DNA from: a virus
Taxonomy: Duplodnaviria; Heunggongvirae; Uroviricota; Caudoviricetes
Virus record (IMG/VR): IMGVR_UViG_2859821903_000003
Span: 1 to 58,025 of that record
DNA: 58,025 nucleotides
Reading direction: 5' to 3' (one strand)
Part shown: positions 1,462 to 15,995 of the stretch, piece by piece
Position numbering within the stretch: the stretch's first letter is position 1
How the letters are laid out: the number at the start of each line of letters is the position of its first letter
The notes under the pieces: generated by a model
Told to the model about the DNA's origin: nothing
What the model saw: only the letters and a program-made list of their open reading frames with translations
Databases searched by the model: none
Program-made: the position numbers and the translations under genes

Positions 1462-2195
1462 ATATGTCCTTTTATCACCATATCAAGACAAACCATTGAT
1501 TTAATTAAATAATCTGCACTGAAAAAAGTGCCAAAAATCGCAAATTGACTACACCATTAACTACACCGTTCGGTGCACCGTATGAAACAACGTGGAACAA
1601 ATAGACACAAGAAATATACAGGCGGATCATCTTTCCAGGGGAAGCGCACCAATTCATGAGGGGCGTTAATGTCTATATGGGGATCCCCACCTACCGGAAT
1701 TTTTTTCCGGTTAAACGTTAATCAGGCTGGTGGGCTTTACCTGTTCGGTAGGTGTTATGATTATCGTAATACCTTTCCCCAATGGGGTAAAAGCATCAAC
1801 CGTAACGAAAGTCGTTATGGTTGCCACTGATACCCCCAATTTGGGTATCACGAGTAAGCCCCAAAATCTGGGTGTTACTCTTACTACCCAAACTACGGGT
1901 AGTTTCCGTAGTTTCATGGTCGAGTTGCAGATCTGCAACTCCCCCATTAACCACAGGCGAATTTCCGCCTTCGGTCATTCCTTAATCATCTGCGTAATCA
2001 TAATGATTATTCAGCAAGCGCAATTTTGCGCTTTGCTTAAAGTTCAGCGAGTTACCGCGCCGACTTCCTCAAATTGAGGTTTCCGAAAATATCAGCGGGT
2101 TAGCGATTAAGCTGATCATTAATTAAACTGCGAAAATGTCGTAGTTGTGAGGGGTGTAGCCAACCCATTTTTGGGCCGTCGGGAATATCAACCAG

Positions 2196-2477
2196 TTACC
2201 GCCGCAACCGCTCCGGCTTCTTCCAGTGGTACGTTATTTTCTCCTTCTCCCGATACATCTCCACGCGGCGACGGTAGGCCTGCAACTCAAGAACTCTGGT
2301 TCGTATGTTGCGCATATCCACGCCATTAAGTTCTATACCATCACGGCGCATCACCTCAGCAACAACACGCGCATAGTTTTCGGCTGTCACGCTGTCCGGC
2401 TGCGTGGCCTGTTCGTCAGCCTGCTGGCTGATTCCGGCAACGCGGCGGATTAATCCCGTTATTTCGGCTTCTGTCAT
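2196..2477 (-). CDS. Hypothetical protein (93 aa), last gene of packaging operon
   Basis: ORF directly downstream of TerL on the same strand; no recognisable motif. Confidence 0.35.
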   Translation of the reverse strand: MTEAEITGLIRRVAGISQQADEQATQPDSVTAENYARVVAEVMRRDGIELNGVDMRNIRTRVLELQAYRRRVEMYREKEKITYHWKKPERLRR

Positions 2478-2490
2478 GCTGCTGACCTCA

Positions 2491-4152
2491 TTACACCCCG
2501 CTAAATTCTTCCAGTTTCTGGCGGTGGCTGTCGCTTATATCAAAAGCAAAATCCTCATGCTCTGCCTGGAATGTACCAAACGCCATCAGCGCCGCCACGC
2601 TCGGGTCTATCTTGTTCGGTGATTTTTTCTTGTTCGGCTTGATATTGGCGTTCGCGTCACTCTGCATCACGACGTTACTCATCGACCAGGACAACACCGG
2701 ATCGCCACGATGCACAATCACCCTGCGGTTAACAAAAACTTCGAACGATTTCGCCGCCGGACTTAATCTGAGGTAGGTTTGCGGGAACGGCTCCACCTCA
2801 AAACCTGCCCCCTGTAATTGCGTTCTGAGATGCGTGGCGTTCCACGTATCAAAGCCCACCAGCCTGATATTAAATTTCTCCGCGTCCTGCATGATGTCAT
2901 CTCTGATCCGGTCGTAATCAATGCAGTCGCCAGGCGTTGTGCGTATCCAGCCTGCTTTAGCCCACTGACGATAGATGGCGCGGTTTTTATTGGCGGGGTT
3001 CTGTAGCTGGAACTCCGGCAGATAATGACGGGAAACCAGCATAATGGTTTTACCTACCGGAAAGGCATAGCACACGCTGGAAATATCGCTTGTGGATGAT
3101 AAATCCAGCCCCGCGTAACACTCCTAGCCGTGTAAATCTTCCTCCGTGAACGTTCCGGCACACTCAGCCCATGCGCCGTTACCCATCCACGGGGTAGTCC
3201 CCTGACACCAGATATTAAATCGCTTTGTCATCATCTCCACCCACTGCGACGGAATACCCCGCGCTTTCTGGATGGTTGAGGCCAGTTTTTCACGATCCAC
3301 GGAAACATCAATATTAGGGTTCGCCTTTATCCACATCGCCGGATCATCAACCTCGTTTTCGTCGTCCAGTTCGTAAATCAGTACAAAAATTGAATCGTTA
3401 ACCTCTTCGCCGTCCAGGATCTGGCAGCAATAATCATAGTGCTGCTTACAGGCTGAAACGACGTTGCTGCCTGATGTGGTAATGGCAAATAACAGCCCTT
3501 CGGGACGTGCGCCCATCCCCAGCTCAAGCGCGGAATAAACGCCGTTATCGGGGTGCAAGTGGTATTCGTCCACGATGGAAAGGCTGGGGTTTGTTCCCTC
3601 GATGGTTGCCGCTTTTGCTGCCAGCGGCTTTAACAGGCTGTTGCTTTTCGGGTGTATCACCTTATGCGCCTGAATATTCACCCGCCTGCGTAACGGTCGG
3701 GATAAAAGGCACATCTGACGCGCATCATCAAAGACGATCCGCGCCTGGTCACGGCTCACCGCTGCGGTGTAGATATCCTGCTGACCGTTCTCCATAATCA
3801 GAAACCAGTTAGCCAGAATCGCGGCGGTCGTTGATTTCGCATTTTTGCGCGGCACTTCGATAAAGGCGCTCGTATATTTGCGCCGTCCGGTGGCCTTAAC
3901 CTTAAAGCCGAGGATGCACGCAAAGGCGAACTGCTGCCACGGCTCCAGCTCAATGGGTCTGCCACGCATCGGCCCTTTTACGTGCGGGCACACCCTGGAA
4001 AAGGCAATAAACCGATCCACAACCTCACGATCGAACGTGTAAAGGGGGCTTTTAAGGTCTGAAAAGTACCGTTTAACGGCCTGTTTCAGCCGTTTACAGG
4101 CCGGAATTTTGCCCGTTTTTACGTCTTCTGCGTACTTATTCCAGGCGGTCAA
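2491..4152 (-). pseudogene. Terminase large subunit, interrupted by in-frame amber (TAG) at 3124-3126
   Basis: ORF 3124-4152 is the terminase ATPase-like N-terminal part and ORF 2491-3075 the nuclease-like C-terminal part; both are in the same frame, separated only by one TAG. Confidence 0.75.
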
Positions 4153-4492
4153 GCTCGTCCTCTTCTTCTGTTTCCGGTGGATTTTTACGGCGGCTTATCG
4201 GGTCAAAACCGAGCAAGGAGGCCATTTTTATCATCACTCTTTCCGCGTCGGATTTCGCGCTTAATGTGGGGTTTCTGCTCTCTCCGCCCTGACTGTTAAC
4301 AATGCTGAACCCGCGCGCCGCAAGGTCTGCGACGGCTTTCCGGTATATCGAGTAATTGACGCAATACAGTTCCAGATTGCTCCAGTCGGCGGGAGTCAGG
4401 TCACCCCGTTCCGCAAGCTGCCGCGATTTTTCCCGCCACTGCTTCACGGCGATATCATCCAGGTAGGCGGGGGCTTTCGGTGGTCTTGCCAT
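4136..4492 (-). CDS. Terminase small subunit (P27-family-like)
   Basis: 118 aa ORF overlapping the TerL start, located after the HNH gene; typical HNH-TerS-TerL arrangement. Confidence 0.65.
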   Translation of the reverse strand: MARPPKAPAYLDDIAVKQWREKSRQLAERGDLTPADWSNLELYCVNYSIYRKAVADLAARGFSIVNSQGGESRNPTLSAKSDAERVMIKMASLLGFDPISRRKNPPETEEEDELDRLE

Positions 4493-4781
4493 GCTTATTT
4501 TTTCGCCAGATTATTTTTCAAAAAATTCCCGTGCATAAAAATTTGAGGAGGCGGTCGGTGCCCGGCGGGGTCGGGTTTGTCCTGAAAACGCCCCCCACCC
4601 CGTCATACAGCCTCATCAGCGATTGCGGAAACATTCCATAACCTCGCGGTCACGGTCGGTTAATCGCTTCGCTGTGATGCGTTCTGCGCGTCCTGACGCT
4701 TTATCTTTATGCCCTGTTTCCTGTGTCTTCCATGCGTCACGCTGCCTTATAAGTCCACGGATAAGGCGGTTTTGTTCCCGC

Positions 4782-5222
4782 TCATTCATCAGCGTCATAC
4801 ATCCAGTTATTGCGGTTAGCGGCCCGTTCTTCCTCTTCACGAAATCCACCTGCGGCACGCTTACTTTTTGTTGCCGGATCAAGCCATTTCGTTTTCTGGT
4901 TATGGCACGCCTGACACAATGGTTGATGGTTCCATTCGGGCCAGAAGAGAACATCATCACCGCCATTAATCGGGATAATGTGATCCACCACCACGGCGGG
5001 CGTATATATCCCCTTCTCAAGGCATCGCACGCATAACGGGTTTTTACTCAGATACATGGCGCGGTATTTGTCCCACTGTCTGGAGTACCCACGCGCGCGG
5101 CGGTGTCCTCGTCTGGCATCCTCTGCACGCCATGCCGCCCGCCTGTGCTCCTCACACTTGCCGGACTTCACGCGCCTGTTACAGCCTGGTTCTGTGCATC
5201 GTCTTAATGGTTGCCACGGCAT
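4782..5222 (-). CDS. Phage-associated HNH endonuclease
   Basis: Motif DHIIPINGG...NHQPLCQACHNQKT; position next to the terminase genes as in cos-packaging phages. Confidence 0.75.
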   Translation of the reverse strand: MPWQPLRRCTEPGCNRRVKSGKCEEHRRAAWRAEDARRGHRRARGYSRQWDKYRAMYLSKNPLCVRCLEKGIYTPAVVVDHIIPINGGDDVLFWPEWNHQPLCQACHNQKTKWLDPATKSKRAAGGFREEEERAANRNNWMYDADE

Positions 5223-5518
5223 CAGTACACCCCCACATCACGGTAAGCCGTCCAGAGTACACCAATCGTCATGGGTACGCGTGTTTTTGCGTTATCCGCG
5301 ACAATCTGGCGATTTTCATACAGGTGAGCGATAAACATCATGCAGCCAATCTTTATGGCTGGCGTGAACTCCAGCCCGTCATCAAAGCGCCTGCCTATGT
5401 GTATCTGGCACGCCTCAAGCGATGCGGCAATGTATCCGCTGATTAACTGGTCTTCCTCGTCGCCATCGATGCGGCAATGGAGTTTCACTTCTTCCAGGGT
5501 GATAAGTTCTTCTGTCAT
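5222..5518 (-). CDS. Head-tail connector / DNA-packaging protein (gp6-like)
   Basis: 98 aa ORF in conserved position after the head-closure gene; translationally coupled. Confidence 0.45.
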   Translation of the reverse strand: MTEELITLEEVKLHCRIDGDEEDQLISGYIAASLEACQIHIGRRFDDGLEFTPAIKIGCMMFIAHLYENRQIVADNAKTRVPMTIGVLWTAYRDVGVY

Positions 5519-5895
5519 TTTTCCGCGCCCTCACGACAAAGAATTTCAAGGCGTGTCCTGGCGGCATCCGGCAGCGGCTGCCCGATGATATTCAGTACAC
5601 GCCCCGCCAGCGGCCCCGTATTGACCTTTATCCGGCTGGTGGCGTTGATGTCCTTCCTGTAGCGTATCCATACCCTTACCGTTCCAGTCGCCAGTTCTGC
5701 ACCCGATGAAATGGCCTCCTTGCTGCTGATCATGTTCACGCTTGCCCAGAGTGTGTGACCGTCCACCCACGTTTCGAGTATTTCGCCCGTCATGGCTCTG
5801 GTCTGTTTCAGGGTCTGAATCGTTACCCTGTCACGCAGTCGCCCTATGTTCATTCCGGTTTTTCTCCCTCGCTGATTTTTACTTCCTGTTTCCAT
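5515..5895 (-). CDS. Head closure / head-tail adaptor protein
   Basis: 126 aa ORF between portal and connector genes; family assignment by position and size. Confidence 0.45.
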   Translation of the reverse strand: METGSKNQRGRKTGMNIGRLRDRVTIQTLKQTRAMTGEILETWVDGHTLWASVNMISSKEAISSGAELATGTVRVWIRYRKDINATSRIKVNTGPLAGRVLNIIGQPLPDAARTRLEILCREGAEK

Positions 5896-7059
5896 GCCTG
5901 GCTGAACTCATCACCACCATCACGCGGGGACAGCCCTTCACGTTCGCGGGCTTCGTTCGGGCACATAACGCCGGATTTGATGCCGCGTTCATAGGTGGCA
6001 AAGCGTTCGCCAGGTGTGGCCCGTAACAGGTCCGCGCTGTCAAACTCCACCTGATACCGGATACCAGGTACAGGCGAGGCCACCAGCAGGGCGTTTTTTA
6101 TCTGCTTCTCAAAGTTCGCCAGCCACGGGCGCATCGTCATGGTGAGAAATGCGCGGCTTGCCTCGCTGAAATTGCTGTAGGTGCTGTTGCTGTATTCCTG
6201 CAAAAAAATCGGCGAGACGTTGAACATTCGGGCGATGTCTTCAATGGTGAAGCGACGGGAGGCCAGCCATTCAGCATCCTGATTACTCATGCCCAGCTGC
6301 TGATAGCTCATACCCCCTTCAAGGATGGGCGTTTTTCCGGCGTTTCTGGCCCCTTTGTAGCGTTCCAGCGCGGCTAATGCCTGTTTGCCCTTCACGCCGT
6401 CCAGCCATTCGCCTGACGTGATAACCCCTGCCGCCATCATGCCATCACGCATCACGCTCGCGCCGTGGCGTTGTTGGGCCAGCCCAAGCCCCAGCGATTC
6501 GCGGCAGATGGTTACAGGTGAGCGCCCCATAAAACCGTCATCCGTGGAGTAACGAAGGTGGAGAACCTCCCACGGTAAATAGTTGCGGGTGTTTCCGGTG
6601 TAGGCGTCAGTGATGCAGTAGCGCCAGTTATGCTCACCTGTCTGCTCAACGTTCACCGACTGCGGCGGGTAAGGATGCAAAGCGACCGGAAAACCATCAC
6701 GCCCCCACTGAATCACCGCATAAGCATTACCGTTTAACAGGCAGTGGCGGATCATCATTCGCTTAAACTGGTAGGGGGTTTGCCATGCGTTCGGGCGCTC
6801 GTTGAGGATGTGATCGACCGGATGAGAATCAAGCCACTCGCGGGCCTCCTTCCCCTTCTCATTGCGTACCAGGTACAGGTAACACGGCATGGTAGCCACC
6901 GCCTCAGAGATGACCGTCACGGCGTTCATGACGGCGGGCAGTGATTCCGCTGTCCCCGATGATACGTACTCACCCGCCCCGTGTTCGATGTGCCAGCCAG
7001 CGCCATAAACTCATCAAGCGTCATGCTGCGCTGCTCTTTTTTTCTTCTGAAAGGCCACA
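5850..7059 (-). pseudogene. HK97-family portal protein, probable frameshift near the 5' end
   Basis: ATG at 7059 is coupled to the protease stop and reads MWPFRRKKEQRSMTLDEF... for about 44 codons, then stops; the 359 aa portal-like body (6929 down to 5850) continues in another frame. Confidence 0.55.
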
Positions 7060-7061
7060 TA

Positions 7062-7634
7062 TCACACCCCCGCTAAATCCGCCCACCAGCGGCGATTATC
7101 CGCACGCGGCATTTTTTCGGGGTGCTGCTCATACAGGGAACGGCGGGCCAGCTCCACGTCGGAATCAGGGTAAGCCGGTACGGATGTAACGGTAATTTCG
7201 TACAGTTCCGCCACCAGCACGGTGCGCACGCATGGATCTGTTGTGGTATCCCATACATCCTTACGGGAACGAAAGCCAAAGCTCATGCCGGATATATCAC
7301 CTCGTTTAACCAGTTCGATAACGTCGCGCCCTGTACTGGTATCCGGTGGGGTCAGTTCAAAGCGTAACCCTGTTTCGTCCTCTTCCAGTTTCAGCGTGCC
7401 GGAACGGGTGCGCCCCAGTAACATGCTGTGGTCATGCTCATACAGGCCGCGAACGTCATTACCCGCCGCAAGCCATTCAGTAAACGCCCCCCGCTGGAAT
7501 TTTTCGTAAAACTCACCCCATAACAGTTCTGAAAGCTTATCCCAGCGAACAATGTAGCCCGTCAGCGTACCGGCTCCGCTGGTGGTGATTTCCGATGACC
7601 GGATTTCCATACTCTTCATAATTTTTTCACCCAT
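7062..7634 (-). CDS. Prohead maturation protease (HK97 family)
   Basis: 190 aa ORF between capsid and portal genes; size and position typical of S78-type prohead protease. Confidence 0.7.
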   Translation of the reverse strand: MGEKIMKSMEIRSSEITTSGAGTLTGYIVRWDKLSELLWGEFYEKFQRGAFTEWLAAGNDVRGLYEHDHSMLLGRTRSGTLKLEEDETGLRFELTPPDTSTGRDVIELVKRGDISGMSFGFRSRKDVWDTTTDPCVRTVLVAELYEITVTSVPAYPDSDVELARRSLYEQHPEKMPRADNRRWWADLAGV

Positions 7635-7672
7635 AAAACACTAAAGGGGCTTTTAAGCCCTTCTGTATGCTA

Positions 7673-8830
7673 TTAATCGTCGTCCTGTGGCAGTTCCAGA
7701 ATCTTGATCGCGTTCGAATCCACCACGCCACCGCCTAAATATTTCTGCGCGAAAATTTTGATGAAGCCCGGCTCTGTGAGGTTGTCCGGTCTGGTGCGAA
7801 CACCTGTTTCGTGATCAACAATGTAGTAACCGCGTTTGAAGTCACCCAGGGCAATAACGTTATCCGGCATAAACTCCAGATATTCGACCGGAAGGCCCAG
7901 CAACGTATCAGGATCACCCGCCTGTAAACGGTCACGCCAGATGTAATCACCGTTCGCGTTCTTCACCTTCTGGAGTTTTGCCTCCGTCGTGGAGTTAACC
8001 ACCCAGACCGCGTTTTTGCGGTATTTTTTACGTAATGCAAATTTCAGGTCGATCAGCGGGTCCGCAGATGTCCACGCCAGAGATTCGGAAGGTTTAATTA
8101 CCTGCAACGTACCAAAATCACGCTCTTTGTCGTTCTTCTCTGCACGGGGTACGGATAAAAAGCCTTTTGCTTTTTTGTCACCGTCGCCCACAACCAGATC
8201 GCTTTCTTCGGTTTCCGTGAAGGTGTCGCCAATCTCGCCCGTCAGCCATGAAAGGATGTCCACATCGGAAAAATCCACGATTTCCTGCGTGGTGCGCGGG
8301 TACGCATAGACCGGATACAGCTTAATGCTCACCTCGTTAATCTGCGGGGTGCTGGTCTGTTCGCGTGCCTTACCCTCTTCACCGTGGTTAACGGTCGCAC
8401 CGCCAGCGGAAACAAGCTGCTTAAACTCGTTGCTGCTGATTTTCTTCACGGTACAGATGCGGCGCATGGTGGATTCATCCGTCAGCATTCGCATGATTTC
8501 GGTGTTCAGTTCGGGGATAACGGTATAACCACCATCAGCGGGAACGCCTGTACTCAATGCGCGGGTTTCACCTGTCAGAATGTAGTGACGTAGTTCGGCG
8601 GGGTCAGTGGTCTGGCTGTTTTTGCCTGGTTTACTGCGCTCTTCGTCAGCAACGGCCTCAAGGCGGGAGATGTCTTTATCGAGTGATTCAGCTTTAGCGC
8701 GTAATTCGTCAAATTTTGCGCCCTCAGCATCGTTAAGGCTGCGGTTTTCTTTTTCCGCGTTCTCCAGCATGTCGCGCATCTGATTTTTAATGGCGGTTTT
8801 CTGCTGGCGTAATTCGATTATTCTCGGCAT
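7673..8830 (-). CDS. Major capsid protein (HK97 fold family); start probably MPRIIELRQQ
   Basis: About 385 aa with N-terminal coiled-coil delta domain then capsid-like body; first gene of the head operon. Confidence 0.75.
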   Translation of the reverse strand: MPRIIELRQQKTAIKNQMRDMLENAEKENRSLNDAEGAKFDELRAKAESLDKDISRLEAVADEERSKPGKNSQTTDPAELRHYILTGETRALSTGVPADGGYTVIPELNTEIMRMLTDESTMRRICTVKKISSNEFKQLVSAGGATVNHGEEGKAREQTSTPQINEVSIKLYPVYAYPRTTQEIVDFSDVDILSWLTGEIGDTFTETEESDLVVGDGDKKAKGFLSVPRAEKNDKERDFGTLQVIKPSESLAWTSADPLIDLKFALRKKYRKNAVWVVNSTTEAKLQKVKNANGDYIWRDRLQAGDPDTLLGLPVEYLEFMPDNVIALGDFKRGYYIVDHETGVRTRPDNLTEPGFIKIFAQKYLGGGVVDSNAIKILELPQDDD

Positions 8831-9042
8831 AAAAAAAGTCCTGCAGTTAAGTAAGGAACTCCAGGACGCGGCAAACACTCAACCGTTTTTCATAAGGAAA
8901 TCAGCAATCGCACCGATCGTTTTCCCGCCTGGTAATGAATATTGGCGAGCACATTAACAGGCGGGAAAGTGGCCCCAGCGTCCTGGCACCACGGGCGAGA
9001 ATAATCATGATTCAGTTCGGGTAAAATATGCCGATCCGGTCA

Positions 9043-9072
9043 GCGAACAACGTGGAACAACCACGAACAAAT
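9043..9072 (-). promoter_or_regulatory. Array of 10-bp-phased TTGTTC hexamers upstream of the capsid operon
   Basis: Minus-strand reading TTGTTCGTGGTTGTTCCACGTTGTTC; related arrays at 1584-1611, 14425-14478 and 15811-15838. Confidence 0.45.
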
Positions 9073-9117
9073 AATTTACAAAACATGACAAAAAGCCGGA
9101 TTGCTCCGGCTGTGTGA

Positions 9118-9399
9118 TTATCTGTCCTGGTAATTTCGCCATATTTCATCACCAGCACCATCCATACCCATTTCGGCATAAGTGCGATCGACCGCCTTTT
9201 TCAGGTCTCCGTAATTATCCGGCGGCTCCGGTGGCCTCTGTGCCTTCCTGGAACATTCCAGCCGTCGCATCGTGATGTGATGCCGTTCCTTGTCTGTCTC
9301 CACCAGTTGCATGACTTCACCCCATCGCGCCGACGCTCTCCGGTAAAAGCCTTTCGCCTCCAGTTCTTCCGCTATGCGGTCATGTACCATCGTCCCCAC
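9118..9399 (-). CDS. PerC-family-like transcriptional regulator (tentative)
   Basis: 93 aa; segment AEELEAKGFYRRASARWGEVM resembles the PerC/Pch family as I recall it; not verified. Confidence 0.4.
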   Translation of the reverse strand: MGTMVHDRIAEELEAKGFYRRASARWGEVMQLVETDKERHHITMRRLECSRKAQRPPEPPDNYGDLKKAVDRTYAEMGMDGAGDEIWRNYQDR

Positions 9400-9402
9400 C
9401 CC

Positions 9403-9813
9403 TCAGAACGGAATATCATCACCGTAAGGGTCATCGCCTCCCGCTGGTGGCTGATTACCCTGTGTGCCTGTGGTCTTGCGTCGGCTCCCACCAGGACGTG
9501 CCGCACGGGCACTGATTACGCTGTCTGCAATAACCTGATAACCCTGCCGCGTTTCCCCGTTCTGTCCGGTCCACTGGCTGACCTGCATCGTGCCGGATAC
9601 GCTGGCAACGTCGCCTTTTTGATGTTTAGCCAGGAAGTCGGCCTGCTTACCAAATGCGATGACCGATAGCCATAACGTCGCCTGTCCATCCTGAGCCTGG
9701 CTGCATGGCAGCGATACCGCCATACGCGCCAGCGTCATCGGTGTACCCTTGCTGGTCTGTTTTACCTGCGGGTCGTCCACCAGCCGCCCGTAAGCTGCAA
9801 TTTGTGCTGTCAT
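9403..9813 (-). CDS. ssb: Single-stranded DNA-binding protein
   Basis: OB-fold-like N-terminus, Gly/Pro-rich linker and acidic C-terminal tail ending DDIPF. Confidence 0.8.
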   Translation of the reverse strand: MTAQIAAYGRLVDDPQVKQTSKGTPMTLARMAVSLPCSQAQDGQATLWLSVIAFGKQADFLAKHQKGDVASVSGTMQVSQWTGQNGETRQGYQVIADSVISARAARPGGSRRKTTGTQGNQPPAGGDDPYGDDIPF

Positions 9814-9822
9814 ATTGCCACC

Positions 9823-10128
9823 TCAGTGAAGCGATCCGGCGTTGTTCTTTTTCATCTCTTCCATCATTTTTTCAGTGAGCATTACGCACTGAAAACCCAT
9901 GTTTTTGATGTCCACGGGCTTCATGCCTTTATCAGTGGATATCACAGGAAGAATATCCTGATACACATCGCGGTCAGGGTAACTAAGCACACAAAGCGCC
10001 CATGATGCCACGGGTGAGGATCCTTCGTCTGTTTCAACCCACCAGCCTGGTGTAGCTGCGCTTATTTGCTGAATCGTGATCCGTCCGTTGTGCTTGTAAA
10101 GTTTTTCACCAAATTTTGGTTCGCTCAT
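9823..10128 (-). CDS. Hypothetical island protein (101 aa)
   Basis: ORF in the replication-proximal operon; no motif recognised. Confidence 0.35.
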   Translation of the reverse strand: MSEPKFGEKLYKHNGRITIQQISAATPGWWVETDEGSSPVASWALCVLSYPDRDVYQDILPVISTDKGMKPVDIKNMGFQCVMLTEKMMEEMKKNNAGSLH

Positions 10129-10406
10129 GATTCCAACTCTCCGGTTTTAACGTTGATTGTTGTTACCTGTTCCGCTTCGGCAATCTCCCGTTCTGTCAGC
10201 GTGGCAAAGTTTGCCGCCGCCGTGGTCATGAATGCGCTTATCAGGTCGGGATGTTCCTTCGCGTATCCTTCCCGCGTGTGGCGGTCTATCGTTCTGATTG
10301 CCACCTTTAAGGTGTGCTCAGTCATGTCTAACGCTTTATATTTTGGCTCTGTTCTGTCTCTGCGTTTTTGGGTCATTTCTCGCAACCTCTCACTTTTTCG
10401 CCTCAC
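10125..10406 (-). CDS. Hypothetical island protein (start uncertain, possibly the internal Met at 10325)
   Basis: ORF whose 5' portion overlaps the iteron array. Confidence 0.3.
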   Translation of the reverse strand: MRRKSERLREMTQKRRDRTEPKYKALDMTEHTLKVAIRTIDRHTREGYAKEHPDLISAFMTTAAANFATLTEREIAEAEQVTTINVKTGELES

Positions 10407-10578
10407 TTTTTCAAGCGTCTCACTTCGTCGCAGTTGGGATTTTCGGTTTTTCTATGTGTATGTTTCATAAGTATTTTTTTACCCCTCACTTTTGAGGATG
10501 TATACAGGTCGAAAAGTGAGGGGGAGCGGGCTAATTTTGGCCCTCTTTCTATCCCCTCGCTTTTGCTCCTCACTTTTA
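10379..10578. repeat. Iteron array, CTCACTTTT-type repeats (at least 6 copies, one inverted); candidate island origin of replication
   Basis: Copies at 10379, 10393, 10410, 10486, 10570, a CTCGCTTTT variant at 10553 and an inverted copy at 10511-10524, immediately 3' of the replication gene. Confidence 0.5.
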
Positions 10579-11976
10579 TAGCGGCGCTACATCATCCCCA
10601 TCGATACGAATAACCCCATCTTTTTCCAGCTTGTACAGCCAGCGCCGGAAGTTTTTCATTTCATACCCCAGCTTTTTCATGTCATCACGTAACATCTGGA
10701 TCGTGCACTTGTCGCCGTTCTGTGTGCGTGAACGGATGCACCCCCATAGCGCGGTATGGTTTTCCGTCTTGTTCCCTGCCTCCTCGATGCGCTCCAGTTC
10801 AACAGGAGGGCGCGGATCATCCACCACCACCAGCGACGTGATTAATTCACCGTCAGCGTCGGTAAAAAGCTCCACCACGCGTAAGTCATATGCGGCTTCT
10901 TTGAGTTCCTCCGCGTCCTTCATTTTGGTGCATGAGATAACCAGCGCTTCGCTTCCTGCGTCCTCCCTGCGTATCCGGTATTCAGCATCCAGCGAAGCAC
11001 GAAATGCACTGGAACCGCGCGCGCCTTTCGTCTCATCCTTGCCGGAATGGTGAACCACCAGCACCGTGGCCCCTGTGCGTCGTTTCAGTTCGTCACAACC
11101 ACGGATAAACGCCCCCATATCACGGGAATCATTTTCATCATTCCCACCAAAGCAACGCGCCAGCGTATCCAGAATAATCATGCGTACAGGTTTACCCGTT
11201 TCCCGCTCCACCTGACGGGCAGCGATAACCATTTCATCAACATCAAGCGGGGCAGCCGGAAAGATGGGGCGGTTTACCAGATACAGATTTTTCACCTGCT
11301 CATCGTGCACAACCTCCCAGGCTTTTACACGACGCGGAACACCTATACCGCCTTCACCAACCACATAGAGAACCGCACCATGTGCAACCCTGCGGCCTCC
11401 CCACTGGCGACCAGTGGCAACATGGCACGCCCACGATCCGGCAAGGAATGATTTATAGGACCCGCTAGCCCCGTATATGCTGCATAGCGATACCGCCGGA
11501 ATAATCCCCTTAACCACGTAATCCAGTTGCGTGTCGTATCCGGTAGATCCAACGCTCATCGGTAGCGTGGTTTTTCGCTGGTGGTTTTTTTCTTCCGCCG
11601 GCTCTTTCCCGCGCACCCGTTCCAGGTATTCGCGCCAGTTCTCCCGCATATGGCTGTGCATCCCTTCGGGGTAATAATTCGCATCAGTTACACCCGCCGC
11701 CGCCAGCTTGTGCGCAATGGCATTAATATTTGATGGCCTGATGTGGCCTGCCTTGTACAGCCGGACACAATAGCGCCCCTCGTCGATGATTCTCAGGTCT
11801 GCCAGTTCATCCAGTTGATCATCAGCCAGCACAACGGGAGGCACATTATCGCCAGCCAGTCGCCCGTCCTGTTCCTGCCACTGTTTCGCATGTGCCCAGG
11901 CATCACTACCCGCAAAAATAATGGCTTCGGTCATCTTGTCGTAAGGCTGTTTTTTTAAGTTCGGTGCGCTTTTCAT
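10576..11976 (-). CDS. Replication protein, RecA-like/AAA helicase family
   Basis: 466 aa; Walker A GASGSYKS, Walker B-like LVVHHSGKDE; adjacent to iterons. Confidence 0.65.
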   Translation of the reverse strand: MKSAPNLKKQPYDKMTEAIIFAGSDAWAHAKQWQEQDGRLAGDNVPPVVLADDQLDELADLRIIDEGRYCVRLYKAGHIRPSNINAIAHKLAAAGVTDANYYPEGMHSHMRENWREYLERVRGKEPAEEKNHQRKTTLPMSVGSTGYDTQLDYVVKGIIPAVSLCSIYGASGSYKSFLAGSWACHVATGRQWGGRRVAHGAVLYVVGEGGIGVPRRVKAWEVVHDEQVKNLYLVNRPIFPAAPLDVDEMVIAARQVERETGKPVRMIILDTLARCFGGNDENDSRDMGAFIRGCDELKRRTGATVLVVHHSGKDETKGARGSSAFRASLDAEYRIRREDAGSEALVISCTKMKDAEELKEAAYDLRVVELFTDADGELITSLVVVDDPRPPVELERIEEAGNKTENHTALWGCIRSRTQNGDKCTIQMLRDDMKKLGYEMKNFRRWLYKLEKDGVIRIDGDDVAPL

Positions 11977-12272
11977 TTCTTGCCCCTGAATCCGTTAATC
12001 ATGGTTTTCAGCTTCTGGATGTTTGCCCGTGCCCTGGCGTTGCTGGTGGGCACGTTATGCGGCGCGGTCTGTACCAGAGAAAAATCACGCCGGAACTGAT
12101 AAACAGGCATCACGCAATCATATTCGTAACCTTCACGGCGGTAGGTTACGCGCCGTTCTTCCACGCCCTTAATCATTACCGTGCCGCCGTAATGGTCGCG
12201 GTAAATATCACCGCGCGTAAATTTAGGGTGAGTGTTGCCACTGGCAGTTAAGCCAGAATATTTAAGTTTCAT
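11973..12272 (-). CDS. Hypothetical island protein (99 aa)
   Basis: ORF coupled to the replication gene start. Confidence 0.35.
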   Translation of the reverse strand: MKLKYSGLTASGNTHPKFTRGDIYRDHYGGTVMIKGVEERRVTYRREGYEYDCVMPVYQFRRDFSLVQTAPHNVPTSNARARANIQKLKTMINGFRGKK

Positions 12273-12277
12273 TATTT

Positions 12278-12523
12278 TTATTCTCCGGTGTGCTGTTCTT
12301 TATATCCGTCGTGCAATAGATCTATTTCTTGCAGTTCCATTATTACAGGCTCAAGAAGCGTTATTAATGCCGTGGCAATTCTTGATTTTTGTTTGTCGCG
12401 TTCATTGTCGCCAAGTGTTTCAAGCCATATGCGCAATATTTCCAGCATGTTTTCACTGTGAGAAAGTGCAAGAAATGCGCGGTCTATTGTTTCGTGGTAA
12501 ATATCACGCATATTAATCCCCAT
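12278..12523 (-). CDS. Hypothetical island protein (81 aa)
   Basis: ORF in the leftward early operon. Confidence 0.35.
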   Translation of the reverse strand: MGINMRDIYHETIDRAFLALSHSENMLEILRIWLETLGDNERDKQKSRIATALITLLEPVIMELQEIDLLHDGYKEQHTGE

Positions 12524-12725
12524 CCGTCGTTTTTCTTAAAATAACCTCTGTCACGAAATCAGCATAATCGGCGGCGATATTCAGTACATCAAGCCCGTTG
12601 ATTTATATTCTCTCGTGGAAAGTAAGAAAAAAGCCGCTCTAATAAGTTCTGGCATTGACGAAAGCGCATCAGCCGCACCATCAGGAACGCCGGAAAATTC
12701 CTGTTTCAGGGAATTAAAACGATCA

Positions 12726-12989
12726 TCACGCATAACCCCCCCCATTTTCACAATCGGCAACAAGAATATTTTTAGCGTCATTCAGTGACCGCGTTGCGAT
12801 GTATCGGATACATTCCAGGGCGAACTGTGTCCGGTCTTTCTGTTCTTCTCCCTGCGCAAGCTCTGCCGTGCATTCAATATCAATAAGCGCGTGCATCAGC
12901 GTAGTGAGCGCGGCGGCTGCTGCGTCCGGTGTGGTTTTATTGTGCATAGGTTTCTCCCTGGCGGATTTTTGCAGCGAATACAGCAACAC
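12726..12989 (-). CDS. Hypothetical island protein
   Basis: ORF in the leftward early operon; start uncertain. Confidence 0.25.
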   Translation of the reverse strand: MLLYSLQKSAREKPMHNKTTPDAAAAALTTLMHALIDIECTAELAQGEEQKDRTQFALECIRYIATRSLNDAKNILVADCENGGGYA

Positions 12990-13140
12990 AACCGGACGGG
13001 CAACGGCTACGCGCTTCGCGTTCCGTCCAGGCGGTTACGTGGATGATTTGAGATTCTCCGGCACTCAGGGCCAGAAAACGCCACACAAAGGCCGTTTGTG
13101 TGTGTACAAGGTGTGGTATATGATTTACGGCAACCATAAC
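12937..13140 (-). CDS. Hypothetical first gene of leftward operon (start taken as MVAVNH)
   Basis: The longer ORF would overlap the operator palindromes, so the internal start is preferred. Confidence 0.25.
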   Translation of the reverse strand, partial: VMVAVNHIPHLVHTQTAFVWRFLALSAGESQIIHVTAWTEREARSRCPSGCVAVFAAKIRQGETYAQ

Positions 13141-13227
13141 GGCTCCTAGTTTACGTTGTTGGTTAGAAGCCCTGCGAGTGGTAATGACACTTGCGGGGCT
13201 TTGCTTTTTTAAGTGCTCTTGTGTTAA

Positions 13228-13272
13228 GGTGGCCACCTAACAATGGAAAGGCTAATTCAATAGGTGGCCACT
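13228..13272. promoter_or_regulatory. Twin palindromic operators AGGTGGCCAC (13228-13237 and 13263-13272) in a divergent control region
   Basis: Two copies of a 10-bp palindrome with 35 bp centre-to-centre spacing, between the divergent leftward operon and the RHH gene. Confidence 0.5.
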
Positions 13273-13331
13273 TGTCAACAATCAAACGCGATAAAAGCCC
13301 TAAAGGGGACGGGCAATCCCCACAATTCAGA

Positions 13332-13463
13332 ATGCGAATTTCTCCAGAGCTAAAAGAGCAATTCGACAAAGAAGCACAGAGCGACGGCATAAGCCTAGCC
13401 AACTGGCTTAAAGAGTTGGGGCGCACTGAACTAAAGCGGCGCGGCATAGAACCCAAAGGATAA
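13332..13463 (+). CDS. Small ribbon-helix-helix (Arc/CopG-like) DNA-binding protein, candidate island repressor
   Basis: 43 aa from MRISPELKEQFDKEAQSDGISLANWLKELGR; RHH-like pattern; divergent from the replication operon. Confidence 0.4.
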   Translation: MRISPELKEQFDKEAQSDGISLANWLKELGRTELKRRGIEPKG

Positions 13464-13505
13464 AAACTATCAGCGCCGTGGTGTGAGGTATTACGGCGCA
13501 TTGCT

Positions 13506-13694
13506 ATGCAGGACAACACAATGACCGATAAAGAATTGACCAAAACATTATCACCGGCACGGAAAAGACGGCGCAGAAAGATAGAGCATGAATCAGAAAG
13601 ATTCGCGCCATGTGCTTTTGCCCTTGAGCAATTCCTTAAAGAGTATAGGGAAAAGCGCTCATTGCAGGTATGGCAACGAACTGAACCAGACTGA
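13506..13694 (+). CDS. Hypothetical small basic protein
   Basis: 62 aa ORF downstream of the RHH gene on the same strand; terminator follows. Confidence 0.25.
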   Translation: MQDNTMTDKELTKTLSPARKRRRRKIEHESERFAPCAFALEQFLKEYREKRSLQVWQRTEPD

Positions 13695-13789
13695 TTGCAT
13701 TGCCCACCAGCCTGATAGCGGCTATCATCCCCGTGCTTATGTTTGGGATCACATACACATAAGGCGCAGCGGGTTATCTGTTCAGAAAG

Positions 13790-13817
13790 GCGGCTCCATT
13801 TCGGGGCCGCTTTTTTT
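13790..13817 (+). terminator. Rho-independent terminator of the rightward RHH transcript
   Basis: GCGGC stem / 11-nt loop / GCCGC followed by T7. Confidence 0.5.
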
Positions 13818-13963
13818 ATGCCTGAAAAACCCCAATTTTGTGGTTTTCCAGTCTCACCAGGGCGAACAAATCCCCGCCCACGTTCTGGCGTATATTCAAT
13901 CTTCATGGTTATAGCTCTGTGTTCAGATGATTGATGTGTGGCGGCTGCGTGCCGCCAGCGTGA

Positions 13964-14152
13964 TTAATGAACTGCCTTGCAGCTATCCTTCCAGGCCAGA
14001 ACCTCGGATAAAGACCAGCCAACGGAACGACCGCCAAGTTTACGACGTGATGGGAATTGTCCGGCCTTTTCCAGGCGGTAGCGACACGTACGGCTAAGGC
14101 CGGTTAGTTTTTCGCATTCTTTTTCACGTATAAACCGATCAGTGCTTAACAC
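13964..14152 (-). CDS. alpA: AlpA-family phage transcriptional regulator / excisionase-like protein
   Basis: 62 aa; LSRTCRYRLEKAGQFPSRRKLGGRSVGWSLSEVLAW matches the AlpA pattern; next to int. Confidence 0.75.
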   Translation of the reverse strand: MLSTDRFIREKECEKLTGLSRTCRYRLEKAGQFPSRRKLGGRSVGWSLSEVLAWKDSCKAVH

Positions 14153-14424
14153 TATTGCCCCCTTTCGTTTCTTAAAGAGTCATCAGGTGTCTTATTGTGT
14201 CGTATTGTTCCCGCTAGAGTGATGAATGGCAAATACTGAGGATGTATGATTTACAGAAAATGAAAAAGTAAGAATAAAATCTTTTAAATTCATGTTAATA
14301 CAAAGGCATAAAATATTGTTCCATGCCTTTTTTCTCGCTCTTTAAAGAGTGATTCGCTAGTGTATAAAAAACCAGTAACACATTAAAAATCAGCTACTTA
14401 TAAATCCGTACGCTTTTTCGCCTC

Positions 14425-14478
14425 TTGTTCGTAGTTGTTCCACATTGTTGCTCATTGTTGCACGTTGTATCTGTTCGC
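14425..14478 (+). promoter_or_regulatory. Array of five or more 10-bp-phased TTGTTC/TTGTTG hexamers between int and alpA
   Basis: TTGTTCGTAGTTGTTCCACATTGTTGCTCATTGTTGCACGTTGTAT in AT-rich intergenic DNA upstream of alpA. Confidence 0.45.
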
Positions 14479-14516
14479 ATATCCAGTATGCGCATACTGA
14501 AAAAACACGAAAAAAA

Positions 14517-15746
14517 TTATTTTCTTCTGGCTACTGGTAGCGTGGTTACGTTTTCATGTGTTCCCGCCAGTATCCCTAACCGCTCCGTCCACATATCCAG
14601 CGCATTGCGTTTCGCATCCAGATAACGGGAATGATTATAAACTCGCTGCATTCCTGGCATCTGGTGGCCTGTAAGCTGCTCCACGACATGCGGATCAACG
14701 CCTAAATCGTTCAGCATGGTTGTAAAGGTGCGCCGGATGTCATGCAGTGACCAGTGAGGGTGTTTAAGCCTCCTGTGCGCTAATCTGCCGTACTGCGACA
14801 CGCTGGTTTCCTGTTTCACTTCCCCCAGCAATAAGCCCGTGTGCCTGTTCTGCTCCACCAGCTGCGTGACGAACGGCATTATCGCTTCCGGTATGGGCCG
14901 GAATATGGCTACCTTCGTTTTGCTGTGCTCCTTCGGAACAGTCCAGAGCATTTCGGTAAAATCCCACTCGCCGATCTCCGATAACCTAAGTTCGACCGTC
15001 CGGCATCCGAACACAATCAGGAGGCGGATTAGCGCGATGTAGTAGGGGGAGAATATTTTTTTGTCCAGTGCCTGCAATAATTCGCCAAGTTCTTTGTTGC
15101 TTAAGACACGCTCGCTTATATCCGGTTTTTTCCCAACGTCCGCCACACTCATATCATCAAGAACGTTGCTGATTGCATAGCGCCGCTTCCGGCAGAACTT
15201 AAGCGCCTGCTTGCATGTCTGTAGCAGGAACCCGGCGGAAACAGGGGCTTGCTTTGCCACCCGATCAAAACAGGCCAGCCAGTGCCGTAGCTCGCATTTA
15301 TCCAGCGGCATAGGGCCAATGTGCTGTATTACGTGATTATTTAGCCGCTTTTTCAGTGGGTCATAATCCACACGGTTTTCCTTTGCGTACGACTCAAGCC
15401 AGTAGGTGAGCGCATCACCAACCGTTACCGGCTTTAACGCTTCCTGTACGGTGTAATTCATCTCATGACGTGGATTTTTCCCCTCAGCCAGCCATGCGCG
15501 ACACTGGGCGGCTTTTTCCCTGGCTGATTTCAGACTCAGATCAGGATAATTTCCCAGCTTAATGCGTTCCGGTGGTGCCCCCCTTCCCGTTCCGGCCCTG
15601 TAAGTGAAATACCAGGTCAATTTCCCTGATGTTAAATATTTCACGCTCAAGTTTCCGCCATCACTATAAAACGTGTTTTTCTCCGCTGGCTTACCATGAA
15701 GTTTCCTTAGCAAGGTATCGCTCAGTTTGTTCATTGCTCTGCTCAC
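14517..15746 (-). CDS. int: Tyrosine integrase, P4-type
   Basis: 409 aa; N-terminal arm-binding-like domain (KLSDTLLRKL...SDGGNLSVKY), catalytic HDIRRTF and LLGHQ...RVYNHSRY. Confidence 0.85.
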   Translation of the reverse strand: MSRAMNKLSDTLLRKLHGKPAEKNTFYSDGGNLSVKYLTSGKLTWYFTYRAGTGRGAPPERIKLGNYPDLSLKSAREKAAQCRAWLAEGKNPRHEMNYTVQEALKPVTVGDALTYWLESYAKENRVDYDPLKKRLNNHVIQHIGPMPLDKCELRHWLACFDRVAKQAPVSAGFLLQTCKQALKFCRKRRYAISNVLDDMSVADVGKKPDISERVLSNKELGELLQALDKKIFSPYYIALIRLLIVFGCRTVELRLSEIGEWDFTEMLWTVPKEHSKTKVAIFRPIPEAIMPFVTQLVEQNRHTGLLLGEVKQETSVSQYGRLAHRRLKHPHWSLHDIRRTFTTMLNDLGVDPHVVEQLTGHQMPGMQRVYNHSRYLDAKRNALDMWTERLGILAGTHENVTTLPVARRK

Positions 15747-15995
15747 GTTTTACCCCCTCTTTACGAAAAAGTGACTACACCAGTGACTACACCGATCGTT
15801 GCACAAAGGGCTACAACGTGAAACAAGCTGGAACAAGGAAAATCACAAATCTGTTGATAATCAAAAACATAATGCACAACCTGAAACATTATGAAACGGC
15901 AAAAAACACTAATTGATAAAATATGCCCATACTTCACGCATTACGTTAAGCATCCGTTATAATCGGTTGCAGATACCAGCCTGTGGATGCTTAAC

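Follow-up and report, generated by a model that had tools for sequence, protein, structure and literature searches.

Phage-inducible chromosomal islands (PICIs) carry PerC alleles (PMC6092414, PMC11773190), and the PerC family, the five Pch genes in their three groups, the phenotypes of PchE and the capsid-forming PICI EcCIEDL933 are already published. The gene described here encodes a PerC-family regulator and lies on the minus strand, at 9118..9390, of a 58,025-nucleotide stretch of DNA (IMG/VR record IMGVR_UViG_2859821903_000003, positions 1 to 58,025; the whole stretch is termed the window). It is part of an island with the layout of a capsid-forming PICI, and its closest described relative is PchE of Escherichia coli O157:H7.

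PchA, PchB and PchC are the only members of the PerC family with a demonstrated mechanism, H-NS anti-silencing; PchA relieves silencing by H-NS, StpA and Hha, has no homology to DNA-binding proteins, and lowers H-NS occupancy both in vivo and in vitro (PMC4764244). These proteins are SOS-induced and activate the enterocyte effacement locus (LEE) as well as adhesion, the opposite of PchE (PMC6265319, PMC7369912). Overexpression of PchE in the O157 strain PA20 leads, without a need for ler, to strong repression of csgD, curli, biofilm and HEp-2 adhesion, and flagellar expression goes up; PchE and PchD have little effect on the LEE (PMC6265319, PMC7369912). According to the citations of Porter 2005 in PMC11773190 and of Iyoda and Watanabe 2004 in PMC6265319, PchE-type proteins, unlike PerC and PchA/B/C, do not activate LEE1/ler. 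The PICI-borne homologues of EcCIEDL933 and EcCICFT073 had no effect on LEE1 fusions, and EcCIMP1_025, a further PICI-borne homologue, silences LEE1 in C. rodentium (PMC11773190).

Identity and proposed action of the regulator

Two features define the gene and its start.

9118..9390, minus strand: PerC-family, PchE-type regulator, coding sequence of 90 amino acids plus stop (Pfam, RefSeq, identity to PchE, and ratio of nonsynonymous to synonymous polymorphism, pN/pS)
9399..9404, minus strand: GAGGGG, a Shine-Dalgarno-like run 8 nt upstream of the ATG at 9390, overlapping the end of the gene for a single-stranded DNA-binding protein (SSB)

The list of open reading frames (ORFs) contains a 93-residue frame at 9118..9399 on the minus strand that opens with GTG and carries AEELEAKGFYRRASARWGEVM as residues 10-30. 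From this segment, the sequence-only reading had proposed a resemblance to the PerC/Pch family, to be checked by an HMM search. The search was decisive in its favor: the ORF scores 146.5 bits with Pfam PerC (PF06069; E=3e-43), for which the gathering cut-off is 22.6 bits, and positions 1-89 of the 90-position profile align to residues 4-92. With PerC of enteropathogenic E. coli (EPEC), taken from an IncF plasmid on which its gene lies directly downstream of that for “protein PerB”, the protein has 41% identity over 88 of 90 residues, at a pairwise E of 4e-25. Identity to PchE of O157:H7 Sakai is 88%, and the two also have in common the gene order SSB-PerC-capsid and the chromosomal site between phoQ and roxA. 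It is thus virtually certain that the ORF encodes a PerC-family protein orthologous to the group 3 PerC homologue PchE. An identical protein is deposited in RefSeq for strains FORC_042 and AR_0013 (WP_000233312.1, 273 nt, “PerC family transcriptional regulator”), and the assignment in PHROGs is to phrog_994, a family of unknown function, at 156.6 bits. No second PerC-family gene was found in the window by tblastn.

The frame that had been recognized is real, and its start requires correction. Because the profile match begins at residue 4 of the ORF, the true start is the ATG at 9390, giving 90 amino acids. The GTG at 9399 was rejected as a start, since the PF06069 profile, the 273-nt RefSeq gene and the Shine-Dalgarno-like run all favor the ATG; no run comparable to GAGGGG was seen upstream of the GTG. 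The three additional N-terminal residues of the 93-residue ORF are probably not translated. The stop codon of the SSB gene, TGA, is at 9403-9405, 12 nt from the PerC ATG. Two plus-strand ORFs, 9114-9275 and 9277-9669, are antisense to these two conserved annotated genes, have no family support and were rejected as genes. Over 42 distinct alleles of the PerC gene, pN/pS is 0.33, with values of 0.23 for residues 1-52 and 0.40 for residues 53-90, and the gene is under purifying selection.

The invariant positions of the protein fall into two sets, a cluster at G14-W23 and a second set at R69-G75. The PerC core is present: G14, Y16, R17, R18, A19, A21, R22 and W23 are invariant in 20 relatives, and the core K-G-(F/L)-Y-R-R-A-A-x-R-W is also found in EPEC PerC and in the PchA/B/C type. 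An AlphaFold2 model built from a 20-sequence alignment has a mean predicted local distance difference test (pLDDT) score of 82.7, with residues 1-50 above 90 and followed by a proline-rich linker, and is composed of five helices (residues 5-13, 16-27, 33-50, 60-74 and 79-84). Foldseek searches of the PDB and BFVD with this model gave no match at E<=0.001, and a DNA-binding fold, helix-turn-helix or otherwise, was not among the results; the best viral match is an 80-residue “transcriptional regulator” of a Klebsiella phage (E=0.077). In a sequence search of the PDB, no solved structure of a relative was found, only chance matches to helical and coiled-coil proteins, the best of them to the F-BAR domain of PACSIN (E=0.006).

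The PerC protein would be the final gene product of an early/replication operon of two small ORFs, SSB and PerC, which is followed by a putative terminator.

9086..9111, minus strand: intrinsic terminator-like hairpin AGCCGGAGCAATCCGGCT with T-run, starting 7 nt past the PerC stop (terminator scan)
9403..9813, minus strand: SSB, directly upstream of PerC (annotation of the approximately 99%-identical FORC_042 island)
9823..10128, minus strand: small ORF of 101 amino acids, which FORC_042 has as a hypothetical protein and which Sakai Sp7 and AR_0013 lack
10125..10376, minus strand: homologue of ECs1586 (92% DNA match of 10125-10378 to Sakai ECs1586)

The two small ORFs (9823..10376) are presumed to be the first genes of the operon. 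In O157 PA20, rapid amplification of cDNA ends placed pchE on one transcript with ECs1586 and ECs1587 (SSB), which starts shortly upstream of ECs1586 (PMC7369912), and in the strain considered here SSB and PerC are probably on one transcript. Transcription most likely stops at the hairpin, which has a predicted folding energy of −14.9 kcal/mol (z=−4.3 versus shuffled sequences) and is found 3′ of PerC in all 78 IMG/VR loci with enough sequence, whatever lies downstream. With a terminator 7 nt after its stop codon, PerC would therefore be expressed separately from the downstream capsid operon. Homology between island variants ends directly after the hairpin, at window position 9090.

The protein itself most likely acts in trans on transcription and is probably all-helical, without a classical DNA-binding domain. 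Two modes of action can be proposed. Similar to PchA, it may bind AT-rich DNA coated with H-NS and remodel the H-NS/StpA/Hha complex; or, similar to ANR proteins, it may bind partner regulators. For the PchE branch, the expected outputs would be repression of csgD/curli and of adhesion, increased expression of flagellar genes, and no activation of LEE1. PchA, a homologue of 43% identity, is the model for the mechanism, and PchE, at 88% identity, the source of the proposed host targets; that both are as proposed here is an even bet. Identity and mechanism taken together, this reading has a probability of roughly 0.75. The sequence-only reading had further suggested, from the cross-regulation of chromosomal virulence loci by PerC/Pch proteins, that the island could affect host gene expression. 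This suggestion holds as far as the published work on the orthologue PchE goes, and should not be taken to mean activation of the LEE, given the PchE branch to which the protein belongs.

Several points weigh against this reading. The phenotypes of PchE come largely from plasmid overexpression, and the effects of deletion are small (PMC6265319, PMC7369912); PchA, alone in having the H-NS mechanism demonstrated, is a paralogue of 43% identity whose effect on adhesion is the opposite. Since EcCIMP1_025, which is approximately 40% identical, represses LEE1 (PMC11773190), neither the direction of regulation nor its targets can be predicted from family membership. The window protein and PchE differ at 11 of 89 aligned residues, mostly in the C-terminal half, and the LEE status of the host is not readable from the window. 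With respect to expression, which is putative, a scan of 8600-10700 for sigma-70-like promoters returned no sites, and the sequence upstream of the ECs1586 homologue differs from the promoter region mapped in Sakai. With an upstream region unlike that of Sakai and no consensus sigma-70 site, co-transcription in this strain is thus something that we infer.

The SSB-PerC-terminator cassette and its island

Close DNA relatives of the PerC gene are present in 767 of 5,426 complete E. coli genomes, and every match listed is annotated as a PerC family regulator. The stretch from SSB through PerC and the spacer to the capsid gene is covered to at least 80% in 355 genomes. A homologue occurs in 91 plasmid records, most of them less than 60% identical; chromosomal islands and plasmids commonly carry PerC-family homologues. 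In a tblastn search of 50,697 deposited phage genomes there was one match, to a 1.6-kb record, and the PerC family is essentially absent from deposited phage genomes at the sensitivity of that search. Despite this near-absence, PHROGs has several “transcriptional activator” families related to PerC. A word-indexed protein search returned 46 close E. coli relatives and a scan of genome contigs by exact peptide patterns returned six loci, neither of which is a census of the family.

For comparison of neighborhoods, 80 IMG/VR loci (L012-L091) with PerC proteins 76-100% identical were collected, with PerC at approximately 5001-5270 in most. SSB is the upstream neighbor in 72 of the 77 loci with room for it. 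A head module follows the SSB-PerC-terminator segment in 76 of the 76 loci with at least 2 kb downstream, a proportion that is biased upward by the selection of IMG/VR for viral hallmark genes. These head modules are of three unrelated kinds, the HK97 type in 33 loci, lambda gpE/gpD in 40, to which a Nu1-like small terminase may be added, and a 629-residue ClpP-capsid fusion in three, and the recombination breakpoint between cassette and head module lies directly after the terminator hairpin. SSB-PerC-terminator thus behaves as a cassette that ends the replication/early module.

Six more distant loci encode a homologue of 40-46% identity, in two species of Pantoea and in Chimaeribacter, Lonsdalea, Erwinia and Buttiauxella, and none of the six has a head module related to that of the window island. 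In the two that were examined by Pfam, from Pantoea and Buttiauxella, the homologue follows a primase-helicase, with SSB in between in Buttiauxella. Downstream of both homologues are uncharacterized proteins of 108 and 858-993 amino acids (L003 7390-10303, L008 7493-10802), for which no Pfam or PADLOC match was found; these could be uncharacterized cargo, possibly defence genes.

The remaining features of the island are as follows.

1470..15918, no strand: whole island, 14,449 bp (capsid-forming PICI layout; alignment to the empty K-12 site)
2491..4152, minus strand: large terminase with an in-frame TAG at 3124-3126, which is CAG (Gln) in FORC_042
5850..7060, minus strand: portal with a 1-nt deletion in a C-run at 6976, ORF truncated to 359 amino acids (versus FORC_042)
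7673..8830, minus strand: HK97-type major capsid, ATG at 8830, first head/packaging gene downstream of PerC (annotation)
9046..9075, plus strand: three 10-bp-phased GAACAA repeats in the PerC-capsid spacer, approximately 215 nt upstream of the capsid ATG
10386..10578, no strand: origin-like region immediately 3′ of the RepA gene, an AT-rich stretch flanked by AAAAGTGAGG iterons, seven in all and of either orientation (repeat search)
10576..11976, minus strand: RepA-family helicase, the island replication initiator (FORC_042 annotation, ORF list)
13964..14152, minus strand: AlpA-like helix-turn-helix regulator (ORF list; so annotated in FORC_042 and AR_0013)
14517..15746, minus strand: tyrosine integrase (ORF list, annotation)

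Between phoQ and roxA, the island interrupts the chromosome precisely at the stop codon of phoQ, with a 10-bp overlap relative to the empty K-12 site, and is flanked by AAATATG(T/C)CC at 1460-1469 and 15919-15928. FORC_042, Sakai and AR_0013 also have an insertion at this site. The FORC_042 island, which is 99.2% identical over 12.8 kb, is ordered as integrase, AlpA-like helix-turn-helix protein, Icd-like proteins and DUF4222, RepA helicase, two small ORFs, SSB and PerC, followed by the HK97-type major capsid, prohead protease, portal, head closure and head-tail connector proteins, and ends with an HNH endonuclease, a small terminase of the P27 family and the large terminase. No tail or lysis genes are annotated in it. 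By the gene lists of FORC_042, Sakai Sp7 and AR_0013, the gene set is that of a capsid-forming PICI, and the length of 14,449 bp and the dedicated attachment site agree with the size of such elements (approximately 10-15 kb). The G+C content is host-like, at about 0.47-0.59, and Rfam and tRNA scans of the island returned nothing.

The replication module is exchangeable, with a RepA helicase in the window and FORC_042 versus a primase in Sakai Sp7 and AR_0013 (10576-11976 versus L002 38601-40733 and L011 17291-19039). Across this swap, PerC is identical or near-identical, and SSB, PerC and the packaging genes are approximately 94-97% identical. The origin-like region fits the layout of PICI origins (PMC6092414), and by its iterons and position may function as the replication origin; the presumed promoter region of the operon ending in PerC overlaps it.

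All single-base indels relative to FORC_042 (1637, 1776, 6976, 7657, 10552, 12593 and 12736) are in C or G homopolymers, and some of them may be sequencing errors; the portal lesion may accordingly be a frameshift or a homopolymer error. Taking the large terminase TAG and the portal frameshift together, the window copy is probably packaging-defective and unable to package itself.

Tandem (G/A)AACAA repeats in 10-bp phase are present at 1586-1615, 9046-9075, 14425-14470 (minus strand) and 15812-15840; the first and last of these sites are at the ends of the island, the second is in the spacer that separates PerC from the capsid gene, and the third lies between int and the alpA-like gene. The seed AACAACGTGGAACAA has six matches with at most two mismatches in the 58 kb, against 0.24 expected, and all six are within the island. 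FORC_042, Sakai Sp7 and AR_0013 have these repeats at conserved positions, and the distant PerC loci lack them. AlpA/Xis may bind the repeats, or Int may use them as arm-type sites; in either case the capsid operon would share its regulation with int and alpA. Beside the GAACAA repeats and just inside the att repeat, a doubled GACTACACC motif (TGACTACACCAtTaACTACACCGtTCGgTGCAC versus TGACTACACCAgTgACTACACCGaTCGtTGCAC) occurs at 1545-1585 and at 15771-15811, and these doubled motifs are probably recombination arm sites.

A lambdoid prophage occupies 20607-58025 (approximate start), at the 3′ end of potB and approximately 4.7 kb from the island, with genes for gpJ, a tail fibre, a tape measure protein, a large terminase and a SASA esterase. 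A 25-kb sample of this prophage is not covered to 80% or more by any complete E. coli genome. Elements of this kind, resident tailed prophages, could provide a capsid-forming PICI with tails.

Alternative readings of the regulator

The PerC protein could instead be an ANR-type anti-activator, whose N-terminal three-helix domain would bind and neutralize an AraC/XylS-family activator and/or H-NS, and which would be repressor-like, not an activator like PerC. This alternative, which overlaps the preferred explanation in part, is unlikely. The NCBIfam model ANR_neg_reg (NF033650) aligns in register to residues 9-55 over 47 of its 54 positions, with E=9e-4 and 19 bits; the curated cut-off is 32 bits, and the protein does not belong to the ANR family by that measure. 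As in ANR proteins, the fold is small and helical, and the conserved core G14-W23 falls in the confidently modelled helical N-terminus, but the window protein has an additional conserved C-terminal extension of 40 residues past the 54-position profile. Five other PerC-family proteins, namely EPEC PerC, the PchA/B/C type, PchE, and the Pantoea and Buttiauxella homologues, score 13.6-24.2 bits in matching register, and ANR matches were likewise seen by the authors of the EcCIMP1 study (PMC11773190). Since EPEC PerC and the PchA/B/C type, both activators, give an equally weak match, it does not discriminate activators from repressors. The likeness is probably a weak, remote similarity common to the entire PerC family, and does not distinguish this protein. 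The known outputs of PchE are chiefly repressive, and EcCIMP1_025 represses LEE1 (PMC11773190), as would suit an anti-activator; by annotation, no gene for an AraC-family partner adjoins PerC in the island.

A more doubtful alternative is that PerC is primarily a gene of the satellite life cycle, a part of the backbone at the early/late junction and not a host virulence regulator. It would help to turn on the head/packaging operon, or manipulate helper-phage or host transcription at induction, and the curli, flagella and LEE effects would be side effects of overexpression. In its general form, in which PerC-like proteins have a conserved backbone function at the early/late junction of Enterobacterales satellites and are not optional virulence cargo, this idea is equally improbable. 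If true, PerC would serve the satellite cycle, for example by remodelling nucleoid-protein complexes or by neutralizing a host or helper regulator on induction, and what it does to LEE, curli and flagella would be a by-product.

The constancy of the SSB-PerC-terminator segment ahead of three unrelated head modules is what this alternative would lead one to expect, as is the retention of the same PerC protein while helicase and primase modules are swapped; however, any gene that ends a PICI replication module would precede the packaging module, and the figure of 76 of 76 is inflated by the enrichment of IMG/VR for capsid-bearing contigs. Homologues also occur after the primase in satellite-like elements of Pantoea, Lonsdalea, Erwinia, Chimaeribacter and Buttiauxella, plant-associated genera that are not known for the LEE, but these distant loci have uncharacterized proteins, not capsids, downstream. 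The EcCIEDL933 homologue, in agreement with a role outside virulence, has no effect on LEE1 (PMC11773190); on the other hand, expression of pchE in PA20 drops upon SOS induction (PMC6265319). The conserved terminator and the recombination breakpoint part PerC from the head module, and the region upstream of the capsid gene has GAACAA repeats in common with the int and alpA regions, which indicates another DNA-binding protein, AlpA or Int, as the shared regulator. With a host-like G+C content, anti-silencing of the island itself is not obviously needed. A role for PerC as a dedicated activator of the capsid operon was considered and is unsupported, given the terminator, the breakpoint, the GAACAA repeats and the distant loci without capsids.

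Least tenable, with a probability close to nil, is the reading of the ORF as a decaying or meaningless frame within a defective island, which the nonsense codon of the large terminase, the portal frameshift and the lack of a consensus promoter nearby would suit, but which is excluded by a frame that is intact and full-length against the Pfam profile, an identical protein in other genomes, the pN/pS of 0.33 over 42 alleles, the good Shine-Dalgarno run and terminator, and transcription of the orthologue in O157 (PMC7369912).

Comparison with PchE and other described systems

The preferred reading, an orthologue of PchE that acts on host transcription, is useful for annotation and is not new: the strain carries a PchE-type regulator on a phage satellite. 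In the literature searched, no paper that uses “pchE” and “PICI” together was found. The equation of pchE with the PerC gene of the Sp7/EcCIEDL933-type capsid-forming PICI may thus be under-appreciated, yet it follows directly from existing annotation. Given that curli, adhesion and motility are tuned by the orthologue in O157, the island could have a modest effect on host behaviour despite its damaged-looking packaging genes. Of wider interest is why satellites so consistently keep a small regulator beside SSB at the replication/packaging boundary.

Among the described relatives, EcCIMP1_025 is, like the window gene, a PerC-family gene on an E. coli PICI; it is approximately 40% identical to the EcCIEDL933 homologue, and EcCIMP1 is a classical PICI without structural genes (PMC11773190). 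EPEC PerC belongs to the same Pfam family, is of similar length (89-90 residues) and has the KGFYRRAA-RW core in common with the window protein. It differs in being plasmid-borne, as part of perABC on the EPEC adherence factor (EAF) plasmid, and in activating LEE1/ler, which the PchE branch did not do according to the work cited in PMC11773190 and PMC6265319. The group 1 proteins PchA/B/C are represented by a PchA/B/C-type protein to which the window protein is 43% identical over 88 residues; these are 104 residues long with a C-terminal tail, and the copy on an EDL933 lambdoid prophage adjoins lysis genes.

As an element, the window island resembles the prototype EcCIEDL933, which likewise has int, alpA and rep genes and its own capsid and packaging gene set (bioRxiv 10.1101/2022.09.08.507074). 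This likeness is by published description, the alignment of the window having been to Sakai Sp7. The window island differs from the EcCIEDL933 type in that its replication module is mosaic and its copy probably packaging-defective.

The closest described system is PchE (ECs1588) of O157:H7 Sakai. With respect to the Sakai island, the window island has a RepA-family helicase in place of the primase and an additional 101-residue ORF before SSB, lacks the insert of approximately 350 bp (ECs1589) between pchE and the capsid gene, and has damaged large terminase and portal genes. Both regulators are 90 residues long and occupy the same slot, with SSB (ECs1587 in Sakai) upstream and an HK97-type capsid gene (ECs1590) downstream, in islands of the same type at the same chromosomal site between phoQ and roxA, the island being annotated in Sakai as “prophage Sp7; untypable”.

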